From positions 3,680,001 through 3,744,000 of the forward strand of contig CBDFKD010000002.1 in NCBI GenBank assembly GCA_965248695.1: DNA of 64,000 nucleotides, in the 5' to 3' direction. Origin of the DNA: Acidobacteriota bacterium. Lineage in GTDB: Bacteria > Acidobacteriota > UBA890 > WLXD01. The notes under the pieces are model-generated. The model was not told where the DNA came from. It did no database searches and was given only the letters and a program-made list of their open reading frames with translations. Of this stretch, positions 50,666 through 56,126 are shown piece after piece. The stretch's first letter is position 1. Every line of letters begins with the position of its first letter. A program made the translations under genes and the position numbers.

Positions 50666-51568
50666 ATGCACGAGTTCCGGCTGACGCCGCCGGCACCGTT
50701 CGGATTCGAGACCACCGCTGCGTTCATGTCGCCCGGCGCGGACGAGCTCGTCGACGTCTTCGACGGTAAGCGTTTCACCCGGCTGGTCGACGTCAGCGGC
50801 CGGATGCGTCTCGTGCTGGTCAGCAGTCTGGGTACCGAGCAGCGTCCGGAGCTCATCGTTACGCTGATGAACGGTACCGAGCGCGACGAGCCCGGGGTGG
50901 TATCGCTGCTGTCGCGGATGATGGGGATGGGTTTCGATCTGGGTCCGTTCTACGCTCGCTGCCGCCAGGACCAGGGCCTGTACGGGTTGTCATCCGACTT
51001 CTATGGGCTGCGCCCGACCCAGAGGATGCACCCGTTTGAGTCCATCACGCTGGCCGTTGCCAGTCGGCCCGGGATGCACTTCTTCCGCGCCAGTGTGTCG
51101 ACGGTGGCCGAGGCGGTGAGCTACCGGGTGGCGTATGCCGGCGACACCTTCTACGCGTTTCCGACGCCTCGTGTGGTTGCCAAGGCCGTACCCGAGGCCA
51201 TGGTGCAGCAGAACTTCAGTATCCAGCAGGCCCGCCAGCTCCACTCCATCGCGCAGGCGGCGATGAGCGGACAGCTGGACATCATCGGCTTGGCGCGCGC
51301 CCCCTTGGAGACACTCGTCGACCGTCTCTCGATGCACGACGGCGTCGGCCTGCTGGGGGCGCAACTCACTGCCATCATCGGCTACGGGCGACTCGATTGC
51401 TTTCCCTCTGCCGACCCGTTGCTGCTCGAATGGCTGGGGCGCAACTACGGATCCGGCACTCCGTTCGAGTCGTTCGAAGCCGATCAATGGGCCGAGCCTT
51501 GGGGCAATTACCGCGGCCTCGTAGCCTTCCATATCTACGCGGAGTTGATGGCGAAGGAGCGTCTTTAG
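50666..51568 (+). CDS. alkA: AlkA-family DNA-3-methyladenine glycosylase
   Basis: PFESI, YAFPTP, HhH-like GVG, FPSAD, WGNYRG. Confidence 0.8.
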   Translation: MHEFRLTPPAPFGFETTAAFMSPGADELVDVFDGKRFTRLVDVSGRMRLVLVSSLGTEQRPELIVTLMNGTERDEPGVVSLLSRMMGMGFDLGPFYARCRQDQGLYGLSSDFYGLRPTQRMHPFESITLAVASRPGMHFFRASVSTVAEAVSYRVAYAGDTFYAFPTPRVVAKAVPEAMVQQNFSIQQARQLHSIAQAAMSGQLDIIGLARAPLETLVDRLSMHDGVGLLGAQLTAIIGYGRLDCFPSADPLLLEWLGRNYGSGTPFESFEADQWAEPWGNYRGLVAFHIYAELMAKERL

Positions 51569-51690: not shown

Positions 51691-52167
51691 ATGAGTGCAA
51701 CCAGCGTGCAATCAGGCCGGGGTCGGGCTGAGCTCTCGAGCGCCGCGCTCGATACGTTCCGCGACTATCTCGGCGCCCAAGGGCTGCGGTTCACGCAAGA
51801 GCGCGAAGAGGTCATCGGCGAGTTTCTGCGACTCGACACACACGTCGAGGCCGAGGAGCTGCTCCTACGGCTGCGAGCCGCCGGGTCGGCCGTATCGCGG
51901 GCGACCATCTACCGCACGCTCGAATTGCTGGTGCAGGCTGGGTTGGCTCGCAAGGTGCGCCTCGGCACGGACCACTACTACTACGAGCACATCCTCGGAA
52001 CCCGACAGCACGAACACATGATCTGCGTCGACTGCGGCAGGATCATCGAGTGGTTCGACCGGCAGCTGGACGAGCTGCTGGAAAAGAACCTCCAGCGGCA
52101 GCACTTCGTGGCCACGCGCTACACGGTACAGGTCTTTGGCTACTGCAAGGATTGCGCACCACGATAG
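51691..52167 (+). CDS. fur: Fur family transcriptional regulator
   Basis: LRFTQER, SRATIYRTL, HEHMICVDCG, GYCKDC. Confidence 0.93.
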   Translation: MSATSVQSGRGRAELSSAALDTFRDYLGAQGLRFTQEREEVIGEFLRLDTHVEAEELLLRLRAAGSAVSRATIYRTLELLVQAGLARKVRLGTDHYYYEHILGTRQHEHMICVDCGRIIEWFDRQLDELLEKNLQRQHFVATRYTVQVFGYCKDCAPR

Positions 52168-52195
52168 GCAACGTTCATCTGTTACAGGCCACTAG
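52157..52195. mobile_element. Solo MITE end
   Basis: caccacgataggcaacgttcatctgttacaggccactag: 39 bp with 1 mismatch to the reverse complement of 48854-48892; contains the stops of both convergent genes. Confidence 0.9.
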
Positions 52196-52773
52196 CCACC
52201 CCTGAGGTCGGCGCGTCCCTGAGTCGATCGTCCGGCCACGGAGCCGTCCCGTCGGGAGGTGCGGGCCGCCGGGCACTTTGCCAGCGCATCGAGCTCAGAC
52301 CGTAGCCACCGAATGTAGGTCCGATGACGCGGTCGCCTTTCGATAGCGCGGGCGCACAGTCCGGCTACGTCGCGACAGGCGTGACTCCAGTCTTGCCGCA
52401 GGCTCGGGGGCAGCGGGAGATAGCAAGGCTCCTCATCGAGGAACAGCGGGTCACGCGCCAGCGTCCAGATGTCGCACTGTATTTCCCCATGCGGCACCAA
52501 TCCGATCCCCTGTAGCAAGTGCGTGAGCTCGTGCGCCACGGTGTAGTGCGACGGCAGACGGCGGCGCAGGTCGAAGCGAACGATCATGTCCTCGAGCACG
52601 GCGATGCCGTCTGCGGAACGCGTGATGCCCACCGTAACGGCGTGTTCGTCAAGCTCTGGAAACAGCAATAGACAATGCTCGATGCGTCTCATGAGCGCGT
52701 CGGCTCGACGATGCCGCAGCAGTGGGCGCGTCGGTCGCGCCCGGGCGCCGAAGAGCGATAGTTGCGATCTCAC
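52192..52773 (-). CDS. Hypothetical protein with HExxH motif
   Basis: VAHELTHLLQ..GEIQCD, zincin-like. Confidence 0.65.
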   Translation of the reverse strand: MRSQLSLFGARARPTRPLLRHRRADALMRRIEHCLLLFPELDEHAVTVGITRSADGIAVLEDMIVRFDLRRRLPSHYTVAHELTHLLQGIGLVPHGEIQCDIWTLARDPLFLDEEPCYLPLPPSLRQDWSHACRDVAGLCARAIERRPRHRTYIRWLRSELDALAKCPAARTSRRDGSVAGRSTQGRADLRGG

Positions 52774-52901
52774 GCTGGAGCCGCCATCCGTTACGGGCCA
52801 CCCGGGTTGGACGTGCGCCGCATTGCATCCTGGGCGGCGACACGACAGGATCGTCCCATACCAAGCCTGTGTTCCGCAGGGGACGGTAACGCACCGGAGA
52901 G

Positions 52902-53906
52902 ATGCCAGTGCATCGTTTGGTTCCCTTGGCTCTTGCGGCGTTCATGGTCTCTGCTTGTCAGAACTGGGACCTGATGCGACCGGAGGAGACCGTCGGAGAG
53001 GCTGACCGCGCCTTCACTCGACTGGGTCCGGAGAACCGGTCGCCGCTGACGAACGCCCTAGCCCTGCGGCGGGTCGAGCGCATCACCGCGGCGCACGGAG
53101 CCGAGCGACTGCAGCTCGCAGAGCGCTTCTTTGAAGAATTTCCGGAAGCCAGGATGTTCGGCCTGGTGCACGAGCTGATAGGTGAGGCGCATCTCGCCGC
53201 ATTGGCGCATGAGGAGGCCGCAATCGCTTTCGAACGCGCCCTCACGCTCACTCGCACCGATCTTCTCGGCATACCGATCGAGAGCGCTCTGCCGTTGCAA
53301 CTCGGACTGGCGAAGGCGAGCGCCGGAGACCTGATCGGTGGCTCTACGATGCTGCTGCGGGCGAGCGTGGCGGACCGAGGCGAACGTCTGCAACAGGCCC
53401 TGCGGTGGGTATACTCGACCGAGGACTCGGCCGGGGGGAGCTTCGACGATTGGCTGCAGCGCGGCCGCGATAGCGTAGCGGTGATCGCGCCCGAGTTCTC
53501 GCTTCCCGGTCTCCAGCAGCCGCAGGTGGACCTGGCGTCCATGCGAGGCAGCGCCACGTTGCTGAACTTCTGGTCGCCGACCTGACTGGCGTGTCGTGAG
53601 GAGTTTCCTCACCTCGATGCGATCTACCGGGAGCTAGCCCCCGAGGGGCTGGCAGTGATCGCCGTCGACGTTTCCGACGATCTGGAGCGTGCGAGCCAGT
53701 TCTACGACGAGAACGATTTCTCCATACCGGCGGCGTTCGATCCCGGCCAGGAGATTTCGGCGCGCGCCTACGGTGTCATCGCCACGCCGACGAACTATCT
53801 GCTCGACGGGCGCGGCCGCATCGTCTGGCGGCATTACGGGTACAAGCGTGGCGACGAGGACGATGTGCGTCGTGAGATTGGCGAGGTCCTCGCCAAGGCC
53901 GAGTGA
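52902..53906 (+). CDS. TlpA-like redoxin lipoprotein, probable selenoprotein (Sec228, UxxC)
   Basis: Lipobox VSAC; TPR-like region; APEFSL..LLNFWSPT-TGA-LACREEFPHL..YGVIATPTNYLLDGRGRI in one frame; hairpin just downstream. Confidence 0.85.
53591..53620 (+). promoter_or_regulatory. Candidate bacterial SECIS hairpin
   Basis: gtgtc-GTGAGGA-gtt-TCCTCAC-ctc-gatgc; apical-loop G lies 18 nt after the UGA. Confidence 0.65.
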
Positions 53907-53921
53907 GTCGCGTCGCCGGCC

Positions 53922-56126
53922 TCAGGCGCTGCGTCGACGTCGTTGCCGGCGGGCGCGCATCTCTTCTTCTTTCATCTCGTCGATGACCTGGAAGAAGGCG
54001 TCCACCAGGTCGCCAGGCCATTCGGAGTCGCGTCCGTCGGTGATGATGCCACGTGCCACTTCGTCGGTGAACGCCGGGCGGTAGCTGCGGTCGGAAGTCA
54101 GCGCATGCCACACATCGCACAGCGAGATGATCTGCGATCCGGTCGGGATATCTTCGCCCGTCAGCCCGTGCGGATAGCCGGTGCCGTCCCAGCGCTCGTG
54201 GTGATGTAGCACCAGCGGCACGACTTCCTTGAGTGCCGGAAGGGGCTTGAGGATCTGCGCGCCGATCTCCGGATGCTGCTCGATCTGCATGCGTTCGCGG
54301 GTAGTCAGCGCGCCGGGCTTCTGCAGGATCTCATCGGGGATTCCGACCTTGCCGATGTCGTGCACGAGTGCCCCAAGCTCGACCGCGAGCGTCTCACGCT
54401 CGTTCAGGCCGACGGTACTGCAGAGCCTCCGGGTGAGGTCGGACACCTCGAGGGAGTGCTCACGCGTGTAGCTATCCTTGGACTCAACCGCCTCCATCAG
54501 CGCACGCAGAGACTGCTGCACCGCGGCGCTGTCGAGTTCCTGTTCCTCGTCGCGCAACATGCTGTCGAGCACCTGACGCGGGGCGTTGCCCTCTCCCGGC
54601 ATCAGCCGACGCGCGTTCACCGAGATCATCGCCTGGTAGACGCGGCCACTACCGCTCTCGTCGACGCCGGCGGCGTGGATTTGACTACCGCCCTCACCCT
54701 TGGCGACGTACATGGCGCGATCGGCCGCGTCCATGAAGCTGTCGGCGACCTCGCCGTCATCGGGGAAGGTCGCCACACCGATCGACACACGTACGGTGCA
54801 TGGAAGCTCGTCGGGTAGGTCCTCGAGCAGGATCAGCACCCGCTCTGCGCGCTCTACTGCCGTCTTCTTCTCCAGCGGCACGAGCGCAAAGAACTCGTCG
54901 CCGTCGTAGCGGCAGATCGCGTTGGCCATCGGGAGTGCGCGCGCCAGGCGCTGGCCGACCTCTCGGATGACGTCGTTGCCGACGACGTGGCCATGGTGAT
55001 CATTGATGGTCTTGAGGTTGTCGATGTCCACCATCACGAGCGACAGCGGTTTCGGCCGCTCGAGCTCGGCCTGTTCGGATAAAGCCTCGTCGAGCTCCTG
55101 GCGGAAGGTGTTGAAGTTCAGCAGGCCAGTGAGACCATCCAGACGGCTCCGCCGCCGCATTTCTTCGACCAGGTCGCAGCCCTGCAGATAGCCGGCCACC
55201 ATCAATGCGGCGGCCTTGCAGAAGGTTCGTTCTTCCTCCTGGAGGCTGAAGTCCTCACGCGCGTCGCGCAGGAAGAAAGCACCTACCACCACCTCGTTGT
55301 GCATGACCGGAACGACGAACCAGCTACGGAAGCGATGTGGCATCGGAAGGTGGCGGCGCACCTTTTCCCACAGCTTCGAAGGATCGTTGGGATGCAGCTC
55401 GGTGATCTCTCCAGAGGAGAGCGTCTCCTCGAGCTCCGGATAGTGCTTCAGCGCCAGTAGGAGCTGAACGCTCTGCTCGCCGTCGTCGGAGCAGGCGGCA
55501 AGATAAGCGTGCCGGTCTCCTTCGTTGAAGATCAGCGTCGAGCAACGCTCAGCGCGCAGCGTCTCGCGCAGCTTCCTGTTCACCGAGTTCAAGACACTAT
55601 GCGCGTTACCCGACGACAGAGCCAGCTGACCGATTTCGAGCAGCGCTTTTGTCCGGTCCCTTTCCGAGGCCACCTGATGAAAACGATGCGCCATCTTCCT
55701 GGTGACGTCGGTCATCCGATGGAACTGGTGCTGCTCGCGGCGGGCCTCGTCGGAGATCGTGCCGAAGAACAGACCCACTCCGAACAGGAATGGCAATCGG
55801 ATGAGCAGATCGGTTTGCCGCCACATCATGCCGCCGTGTTCGACTTGCAGCATGATCAAGTAGACGACGCAAACCCCCAGCGTGGCGATCACCGTATGGC
55901 CGAACTGGCTACTGATGCCGGCGATGATCAGTACGAGGAAGAAGAACAGGAAGAAATCGTTGGTCGTCTCTCCCGTAAACGCCACAGCTACGGTGACGAG
56001 GGCGAGGTCGGCCAGCGTGATGGGCCACCGCAGGCGCTCCCACTGGCCCGAGCGGACGGCCAGGCCGTAGCAAGCGAGGCTTAGCATCAGCACCACGACC
56101 ATCGAAATCTGCTGCCACGGTGCCAT
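53922..56126 (-). CDS. Membrane GAF-GGDEF-HD-GYP c-di-GMP protein (possible 5' frameshift; upstream start 56277)
   Basis: TM N-terminus; DGLTGL, DIDNLKTIND, RYDGDEF; HDIGK, HHERWDGTGYP. Confidence 0.9.
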   Translation of the reverse strand: MAPWQQISMVVVLMLSLACYGLAVRSGQWERLRWPITLADLALVTVAVAFTGETTNDFFLFFFLVLIIAGISSQFGHTVIATLGVCVVYLIMLQVEHGGMMWRQTDLLIRLPFLFGVGLFFGTISDEARREQHQFHRMTDVTRKMAHRFHQVASERDRTKALLEIGQLALSSGNAHSVLNSVNRKLRETLRAERCSTLIFNEGDRHAYLAACSDDGEQSVQLLLALKHYPELEETLSSGEITELHPNDPSKLWEKVRRHLPMPHRFRSWFVVPVMHNEVVVGAFFLRDAREDFSLQEEERTFCKAAALMVAGYLQGCDLVEEMRRRSRLDGLTGLLNFNTFRQELDEALSEQAELERPKPLSLVMVDIDNLKTINDHHGHVVGNDVIREVGQRLARALPMANAICRYDGDEFFALVPLEKKTAVERAERVLILLEDLPDELPCTVRVSIGVATFPDDGEVADSFMDAADRAMYVAKGEGGSQIHAAGVDESGSGRVYQAMISVNARRLMPGEGNAPRQVLDSMLRDEEQELDSAAVQQSLRALMEAVESKDSYTREHSLEVSDLTRRLCSTVGLNERETLAVELGALVHDIGKVGIPDEILQKPGALTTRERMQIEQHPEIGAQILKPLPALKEVVPLVLHHHERWDGTGYPHGLTGEDIPTGSQIISLCDVWHALTSDRSYRPAFTDEVARGIITDGRDSEWPGDLVDAFFQVIDEMKEEEMRARRQRRRRSA

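Follow-up and report, generated by a model that had tools for sequence, protein, structure and literature searches.

The window analysed here is a stretch of 64,000 nucleotides (nt) from an Acidobacteriota bacterium (contig CBDFKD010000002.1, positions 3,680,001 to 3,744,000 of the forward strand; coordinates below are counted within this window). At 52902-53906 it carries an unannotated gene which very probably is a genuine selenoprotein gene, encoding a lipid-anchored periplasmic oxidoreductase that couples a tetratricopeptide repeat (TPR)-like domain to a TlpA-type thioredoxin fold. Translation of 52902-53906 gives a single forward-strand frame whose sole interruption is the TGA at 53583-53585, codon 228, in the context N-F-W-S-P-T-U-L-A-C-R-E-E-F-P, where U stands for the predicted selenocysteine (Sec); there are no other stops or frameshifts. 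An initial annotation, made from the letters alone, had proposed one frame broken solely by this TGA, exactly where the first Cys of the TlpA motif belongs. Both points hold, as pairwise HMMER alignments place the TGA codon opposite the first Cys of CxxC in Chlorobium DsbE (3gl3) and B. anthracis ResA (4nmu). The features of the gene, including its putative Sec insertion sequence (SECIS), are as follows:

52902-53906, forward strand: the whole selenoprotein gene, 334 codons and a TGA stop, with a single internal TGA and an alternative start GTG at 52908
52902-52958, forward strand: predicted lipoprotein signal peptide, residues 1-19, with the lipobox V-S-A-C at 52947-52958 and Cys19 as the putative lipidated first mature residue
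52959-53036, forward strand: probably disordered and poorly conserved tether, about residues 20-45, with a predicted local distance difference test score (pLDDT) below 50 at residues 1-37 and 41-43 and with gappy, variable alignment columns
53049-53477, forward strand: TPR-like all-helical domain of nine helices, about residues 50-192, from models, fold matches and TPR_2 matches in orthologues
53487-53903, forward strand: TlpA/ResA/DsbE-type thioredoxin-fold domain, residues 196-334, from Pfam and structure matches
53583-53585, forward strand: in-frame TGA, the putative Sec codon U228, at the position of the first (nucleophilic) Cys of CxxC, with Cys in relatives at the same column
53592-53594, forward strand: TGT, Cys231, the resolving Cys of U-x-x-C and an invariant alignment column
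53596-53612, forward strand: putative SECIS upper hairpin, a 7-base-pair (bp) stem with a G-U-U apical loop, starting 10 nt past the UGA and made of the R-E-E-F-P-H codons
53584-53624, forward strand: possible extended SECIS with a weak lower stem, minimum free energy (MFE) -15.5 kcal/mol for 43 nt, z -1.90, lower helix 64.5% paired
53601-53603, forward strand: GAG, the invariant Glu234, three residues past the resolving Cys, doubling as the top of the SECIS stem and aligning with a Glu of B. anthracis ResA 4nmu
53787-53789, forward strand: CCG, the invariant Pro296 of the T-P loop (Thr297 is nearly invariant), presumably the cis-proline that faces the active site of thioredoxin folds
53904-53906, forward strand: ordinary TGA terminator with no hairpin behind it; a convergent GGDEF/HD-GYP gene ends 15 nt further on

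The initially annotated span of 52902-53906 stands in its frame and its end, and is less secure at its start, which may be GTG 52908 rather than ATG 52902. A GGAGAG run abuts the ATG directly and is better spaced from the GTG, and the N-terminal fragment is 225 residues long, not 227, in the public gene call.

The internal TGA is a constant property of this gene. A six-frame search of 60 relatives (here, as in the tallies of the order, the phylum and selA, one unpublished genome, G047, is included as one of n, with no conclusion depending on it) gave 26 full-length places in 25 genomes at 39-83% identity, together with 8 more distant places, and every one of them contains one in-frame TGA. When 30 loci were excised and translated for alignment, the TGA fell at the same column, F-W-x-P-T-U-x-x-C, in 30/30, at identities down to 28%; judged from this alignment, it is conserved far beyond chance. 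Within the order, sampled as 26 genomes from two families and twelve genera, the gene is present in 25 genomes and all 26 places have the TGA, the genome without a match being 83% complete; no Cys form was seen among these 26 orthologous places. Of 401 genomes sampled evenly across the phylum, 48 match at E <= 1e-20. Beyond the order, one TGA occurs at 17 places and none at nine; eight of the nine cover the thioredoxin domain only, and the ninth, G069, is a two-domain Cys form. A scan of the genome collection for the Cys-coded motif, by a pattern blind to TGA forms, returned no close Cys orthologue and three weak loci of 26-33% identity, confined to the thioredoxin domain. Homologues with TGA or Cys at this codon, which the initial annotation had suggested looking for, therefore exist in both kinds, with TGA in all 30 loci and Cys in more distant two-domain relatives. 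Indeed, Cys occupies the Sec column in all 17 fetched proteins of a profile search, in G069 (locus L060), in locus L074, in DsbE and in ResA, none of them a close orthologue, and several of the fetched proteins carry the near-identical motif F-W-x-P-T-C-x-x-C-R-V-E-L-P.

Translation evidently matters past the TGA as much as before it. Over the 106 codons downstream, the gene differs from its two closest relatives at codon positions 1/2/3 in 11/5/37 and 12/5/38 cases. Synonymous codon differences number 27 and 30, non-synonymous ones 17 and 17. The part upstream of the TGA has the same third-position bias, and most invariant columns fall in the C-terminal domain, the downstream domain being the better conserved half. 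The frame beyond the TGA is, on these counts, under purifying selection. Standard lists of open reading frames (ORFs) do split the region into 52902-53585 and 53655-53906, as they would for a pseudogene, a nonsense mutation or a sequencing error that leaves two unrelated ORFs; we give this explanation almost no credence. The same TGA recurs in 30/30 loci of 12 genera and beyond, the downstream part has its third-position bias and neither further stops nor frameshifts, and the second ORF would be without the whole active site. It is already contradicted within the order, where there are neither intact Cys codons in relatives nor decay past the TGA.

The second line of evidence is the RNA that follows the UGA. 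The hairpin pointed out in the initial annotation is in place at 53596-53612: GTGAGGA (53596-53602) and TCCTCAC (53606-53612) enclose GTT (53603-53605), and the loop G is the 18th base past the UGA, leaving 17 bases between the UGA and the loop. The bacterial SECIS model of Zhang and Gladyshev (2005), as summarised in the 2026 review PMC13188914 (section 5 and Fig. 2 legend), calls for an upper stem of 4-16 bp, an apical loop of 3-9 nt in which one of the first two bases is G and the next mostly G or U, a UGA-loop spacing of 16-37 nt and an MFE <= -7.5 kcal/mol. With a loop of 3 nt (G-U-U), a stem of 7 bp, a spacing of 17 nt and an MFE of -15.5 kcal/mol, the present hairpin lies within all four constraints. 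In the sister clade the closing A-U pair is open, which enlarges the loop to 5 nt (A-G-U-U-G). A search of Rfam found no family for 53400-53800 at E <= 1, and no general bacterial SECIS model was evident in Rfam from that search.

Covariation was examined in a 48-nt alignment of the 30 loci, in which 96.6% of cells in the upper helix are paired and the loop bases G21, U22 and U23 never vary. Double-sided substitutions affect three of the seven stem pairs: five sequences replace U-A by C-G and A-U by U-A, and one replaces G-C by U-A. The covariation score, 0.192, compares with 0.075 for shuffled alignments (0/500 reach it, a control that is inflated by the relatedness among the sequences) and with <= 0.122 for slid partners. 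RNAalifold predicts the identical upper helix, and a further relative, G228, has a third version of the stem with two further compensatory pairs. A SECIS adjacent to the UGA, as initially claimed, is thus what the comparison favours: the hairpin fits the published bacterial model and its pairing is kept through compensatory changes.

A negative control is provided by relatives that use Cys. A metagenome scan with four Cys-form relatives yielded 80 loci, from which one out-of-frame chance match and duplicate rows were removed. The 11 distinct Sec forms retain six of the seven stem pairs (nine forms) or all seven (two forms), and their hairpins average -9.6 kcal/mol. In the 62 distinct Cys forms between one and five pairs remain (11, 18, 20, 12 and 1 forms for 1 to 5 pairs), with a mean of -3.4 kcal/mol. 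Present in 11/11 Sec forms and lost in 62/62 Cys forms, the hairpin is therefore kept where, and only where, the codon is TGA. One Cys form, L074, even encodes the C-R-V-E-L-P-R-L peptide of the Sec forms, its synonymous codons leaving four of seven pairs and -3.7 kcal/mol. Three covarying versions of the stem, set beside Cys forms of the same peptide that have no stem, make a clean natural example of an RNA signal laid over active-site codons.

A genome that uses such a signal should be able to read it, and the initial annotation had advised confirming selA, selB, selC and selD. All four are present and over their cut-offs: by profile search, selA reaches 521.8 bits against a cut-off of 267.9, selB 330.4 bits (354.3 with its C-terminal piece) and selD 319.1 bits, and the tRNA-Sec scores 70.2 bits, with the anticodon TCA according to ARAGORN. 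A 792-residue frame (locus L011, 1390-3768, reverse strand) encodes selD at its C-terminal end, preceded by a Pyr_redox_2 (NADH-dehydrogenase-like) domain. Fusion of selD to a pyridine-nucleotide-disulfide oxidoreductase domain is mentioned in PMC2398784. Across the order, 22 of the 25 genomes that carry the selenoprotein gene also have a selA above its cut-off. A genome lacking Sec machinery, with close homologues that never have TGA, is what the initial annotation had expected to overturn its proposal; what we find instead is the set of sel genes, and the TGA in all 30 loci.

ARAGORN also makes a second tRNA-SeC call in this genome (G000:C2:4678310-4678399, forward strand; locus L017, 1498-1595), some 881 kb away from the intact selC. 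Only its 3' 76 nt match selC exactly; the 5' end is unrelated, and an rve-type integrase gene (L017, 336-1364) lies closely upstream. We rejected it as an alternative decoder: it is a 3' fragment of selC that cannot form the acceptor stem. Probably it was left behind by an integration into selC or is part of the cargo of a mobile element.

These observations also bear on whether the UGA might be read as Cys, Trp or Gly without selenium, or whether the real product might be a 227-residue TPR lipoprotein whose downstream part is made only occasionally. Selenium incorporation does rest on sequence evidence that is not direct, public gene callers give the N-terminal fragment only, and the second tRNA-SeC call could be taken to hint at unusual decoding. 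We nevertheless find this very improbable, if a little less so than a pseudogene. The downstream domain is the better conserved one and is under purifying selection, the hairpin is kept only with the TGA codon, the Sec machinery is complete, and the extra tRNA-SeC, being the 3' 76 nt of selC, cannot form an acceptor stem. Moreover, the terminal stops of the 30 orthologues are TGA in 20, TAA in 5 and TAG in 5; since TGA terminates 20/30 of these same genes, it is a normal stop and the code is not reassigned. The explanation that we consider highly likely is a single gene for an exported lipoprotein of about 334 residues, with the in-frame UGA at codon 228 read as Sec.

The protein itself can be described in three parts. 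Residues 1-19 comprise a positive n-region, a hydrophobic core and V-S-A-C at residues 16-19 (52947-52958), so that the lipobox of the initial annotation is confirmed. The lipobox pattern is [LVI][ASTVI][GAS]C, and from it the protein is predicted to be a bacterial lipoprotein. The lipobox Cys is kept in 21/21 orthologue rows that cover the column, where it is preceded by A or G, and Pfam LPAM_1 matches 3 of 27 orthologues. An AlphaFold2 model built with the 27 orthologues (pLDDT 87.5, predicted template modelling score 0.83) shows residues 1-43 as disordered, helices at 51-192 and a thioredoxin fold at 196-333. Because the thioredoxin domain filled the structure searches made with the whole model, the N-terminal domain was folded separately, with a pLDDT of 90.9. 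Almost all of its top 50 chains are TPR domains, at Z 11.9-14.7, although Z values of 12-15 are common for helical repeats and may reflect just a common arrangement, for which reason 'TPR-like' is the right word. Foldseek gives idealised TPR proteins as its best matches (E 3.6e-3, template modelling score (TM) 0.74-0.81 on the target), and TPR_2 matches 17/27 orthologues at E <= 0.05, the best at 3.9e-5. The TPR-like N-terminal domain of the initial annotation is thus borne out by fold and by orthologues, not by the Pfam search with the window's own sequence.

The C-terminal domain is easier to place. Residues 195-322 match AhpC-TSA (PF00578, 68.5 bits, cut-off 26) and Redoxin (PF08534, 57.7 bits, cut-off 26.6) in Pfam, as do 27/27 orthologues. 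The closest structure is DsbE 3gl3 (Foldseek E 1.4e-11, TM 0.91 on the target; Z 22.0, root-mean-square deviation 1.7, 141 aligned residues), followed by ResA 2f9s (Z 20.7), CcmG 1kng (Z 17.8) and TlpA 1jfu (Z 15.9). In the model the active-site helix starts at residue 229, which puts the redox pair at the N-terminus of helix 1. The corresponding CDD entry for TlpA/ResA/DsbE-like thioredoxin-fold oxidoreductases is cd02966. The NCBIfam equivalogs all stay far below their cut-offs (ResA 77.5/170, DsbE 56.3/123, TlpA 39.7/230, StoA 45.6/210). By these profile scores the protein is a member of the superfamily that stands outside every named orthologous group, be it ResA, DsbE/CcmG, TlpA or StoA.

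How does it compare with systems already described? With the Cys-type ResA, CcmG/DsbE and TlpA proteins (PDB 3gl3, 2f9s/1st9, 1kng, 1jfu) it shares the fold, the position of the redox pair, the Glu past CxxC, the T-P loop, an extracytoplasmic and membrane-tethered location (predicted here) and a CcdA/DsbD-type donor in the genome. It differs from them in having Sec rather than Cys, a putative lipid anchor rather than a transmembrane helix and an extra TPR-like domain, and in being encoded outside any cytochrome c maturation or copper-chaperone cluster. Comparable, too, are the Sec TlpA-like or peroxiredoxin (Prx)-like UxxC oxidoreductases, first described in 2004-2008 (PMC1088965, PMC2398784); Table 1 of PMC13188914 lists the 'Prx-like thiol:disulfide oxidoreductase' (PF00578, UxxC) among known or high-confidence predicted families. 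The likeness extends to the AhpC-TSA/Redoxin/TlpA-type thioredoxin fold, Sec in place of the first Cys of CxxC, a SECIS directly downstream within the coding sequence, abundant Cys homologues and genes usually mis-annotated as truncated. Two features of the clade of the window's protein are absent from these descriptions, as far as the available portions give them: the lipobox and the N-terminal TPR-like domain, which is about 145 residues long. No TlpA selenoprotein of TPR or lipoprotein type is mentioned in the accessible parts of the literature, including PMC13188914, PMC1088965, PMC2398784, PMC5029168 and PMC12013277, supplements not covered. The window's gene works like the Sec TlpA-like/Prx-like oxidoreductases and belongs to the same superfamily, the listed families having been compared by description and not by reference sequences. 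It opens no new kind of system and is a fairly ordinary member of a long-known class of bacterial selenoproteins, to which it adds an exported, lipid-anchored, TPR-coupled form with a thioredoxin fold.

The ResA-like WAxxUGC selenoproteins of NF041054 are likewise TlpA/ResA-like. The window's protein scores 53.7 bits against that model's cut-off of 300, its motif is P-T-U-x-A-C (W-S-P-T-U-L-A-C) and not W-A-x-x-U-G-C, and the flanking domains differ. A second TlpA-like selenoprotein of the same genome (G000:C2, about 3012085-3012435, reverse strand; L057), in a frame of about 400 codons, does have the motif W-A-S-W-U-G-C and hence the NF041054 'WAxxUGC' type, with a hairpin CTGCC/AGGTT/GGCAG that starts 21 nt past its TGA. 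With at least two TlpA-like selenoproteins in one genome, this lineage spends selenium on envelope redox chemistry.

We posit the following sequence of events. As the ribosome nears the UGA, SelB carrying Sec-tRNA(Sec) would bind the 7-bp G-U-U hairpin, so that Sec would be delivered and termination by release factor 2 averted. The protein would then be exported by the Sec translocon (the secretion pathway, not the amino acid), lipidated at Cys19 and held at the membrane on its flexible tether of about 25 residues. There the TPR-like domain, packed on the TlpA/ResA-type thioredoxin fold, may recruit a protein partner, and U228-x-x-C231 could cycle between the selenol/thiol and the selenenylsulfide, reducing disulfides or sulfenates of that partner in the periplasm. 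Re-reduction might come from a CcdA/DsbD-type (DsbD_TM) membrane electron carrier, the single such gene of the genome, located elsewhere. Under selenium shortage the product would perhaps be a truncated TPR lipoprotein of 227 residues. As its function we favour the CcdA-fed reduction of a protein client, though this is a call that we would place close to a coin toss.

Its main functional rival is a peroxidase-like role. Perhaps the same selenoprotein uses U-x-x-C as a periplasmic peroxidase, or as an enzyme that repairs sulfenates or methionine sulfoxide through a selenenic acid intermediate, instead of as a disulfide reductase. The best Pfam family is indeed AhpC-TSA, GSHPx matches 9/27 orthologues (best E 1.3e-6), there is a Fur-family regulator a short way upstream, syntenic within the family and scoring weakly as PerR-like, and a Sec-only clade would fit a reaction in which Sec outperforms Cys. 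On the other hand, the nearest structures and sequences are DsbE/ResA/TlpA reductases and not peroxiredoxins, the T-x-x-U motif given for Sec-peroxiredoxins in PMC13188914 is not present, the motif here being U-x-x-C, and the NCBIfam scores of the Fur neighbour are all far under their cut-offs. We regard this role as unlikely, while clearly less so than recoding without selenium.

Several considerations weigh against our proposal of a Sec-containing, client-reducing lipoprotein, besides the cautions already attached to the shuffle control and to the Z values of the N-terminal domain. Concerning selenium, incorporation at U228 is a prediction from sequence comparison, not from experiment. The hairpin's loop is at the minimum size of the bacterial model, 3 nt, and its folding energy alone is unremarkable, since at z -1.90 as many as 9/200 shuffles fold equally well. 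With the proposed lower helix paired at 64.5%, the extended SECIS is uncertain. The compensatory changes are confined to a few clades and coupled with amino-acid changes, which implies few independent events. Furthermore, selA is partial in G024 and was not found in G017 (72% complete) and G023 (69% complete). Concerning the protein, the window's own N-terminal domain has no Pfam TPR match at E <= 0.05, and the predicted anchor is compatible with either the inner or the outer membrane. The function is inferred only, as were the 'reductase' and the 'substrate domain' of the initial annotation: no redox partner gene is linked, and the conserved neighbours (Fur-family, HExxH and GGDEF/HD-GYP genes) point to no substrate.

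Taking the conservation, the architecture and the SECIS together, we could speculate further. A core gene that is order-wide and Sec-only might be a periplasmic, lipid-anchored selenoenzyme whose TPR-like domain delivers one client for a reaction impossible for Cys, for example the reduction of a sulfenate, peroxide or persulfide at the membrane surface, with the SECIS carved from the active-site codons C-R-x-E-[FL]-P. This joint idea is a long shot. If it were true, TlpA-type genes, with a SECIS within their active-site codons, would switch between Cys and Sec unusually readily, something at which the mixed sister group hints.

That sister group consists of TPR-TlpA proteins of about 430-470 residues with the motif F-W-F-P-T-[U/C]-G-G-C-R-V-E-L-P. 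Like the window's protein, they have the two-domain plan, the Sec column and the position of the hairpin, with a covarying stem. Unlike the window's clade, from which they differ at 26-37% identity, they have a longer N-terminal helical domain, some members have signal peptidase I-type signals, and the group mixes Sec and Cys forms where the window's clade is Sec only. In a quick IQ-TREE analysis of 61 rows (44 Sec, 17 Cys; L040, L073 and L075 were omitted as too short, and L057 was not included), the 25 order-level rows form one all-Sec group (SH-aLRT branch support 99) adjoining a group in which 18 rows are Sec and 14 Cys. On this tree the most parsimonious count of Sec/Cys state changes is seven, and its starred branches force at least two; considering the quick search and several long branches, the direction and number of switches are not established. 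Some genomes have several copies: G037 has five Sec forms (contigs C49, C145 and C162), two of them in tandem on C49, and contig C1 of G011 has two copies of the family, at 2335147 and 2466005.

Public databases contain this gene, part of the conserved core of an entire order of uncultured bacteria, just as an unnamed fragment of 225 residues. The initial annotation had anticipated that gene callers would split the gene, and public calls do stop at the TGA. A word-indexed public search returned 16 proteins, all unnamed, with 51-67% of the query covered and most of them 224-250 residues long; precomputed TPR matches exist for two of these 16 database fragments. In an exhaustive profile search, 14 of the best 150 representatives end at profile position 218, the column before Sec, and two-domain proteins matched across the Sec site were also found. 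No curated NCBIfam model reaches its cut-off for the window's protein; a dedicated model for the family would therefore repair many records.

The selenoprotein gene is a solitary one, flanked on one side by a divergent HExxH gene and on the other by a convergent GAF-GGDEF-HD-GYP gene. A scan of 52600-54100 revealed no promoter-like site, and a terminator scan of the same span one terminator-like site, inside the first codons and not above shuffled expectation. Four sequencing runs of a single study contain the stretch as contigs, and no RNA run was listed for it. The nearest genes, and one further upstream, are:

53922-56126, reverse strand: a 734-residue membrane protein with DUF4118-like, GAF, GGDEF and HD-GYP (HD_5) domains
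52192-52773, reverse strand: a 193-residue frame with an H-E-L-T-H motif, divergent from and 128 nt away from the selenoprotein gene
51691-52167, forward strand: a Fur-family regulator (Pfam FUR, 88 bits)
50666-51568, forward strand: a 300-residue conserved frame

Between the stops of the convergent GGDEF/HD-GYP gene and the selenoprotein gene lie only 15 nt; synteny of the former is limited to the closer family. For the HExxH gene neither Pfam nor NCBIfam gave a match, and its synteny extends to both families of the order, across 10 loci counting the window's own; its relatives align only from about residue 28, so its real start is probably later. For the Fur-family gene, which in the relatives L027 and L029-L031 lies directly upstream of the selenoprotein gene, assignment to Fur, Zur or PerR failed, as all NCBIfam scores are far under the cut-offs. 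The 300-residue frame, finally, matches nothing in Pfam and gives only a weak hit to DNA-3-methyladenine glycosylase 2 (36 bits, with a cut-off of 229); relatives keep it in synteny with the Fur gene.

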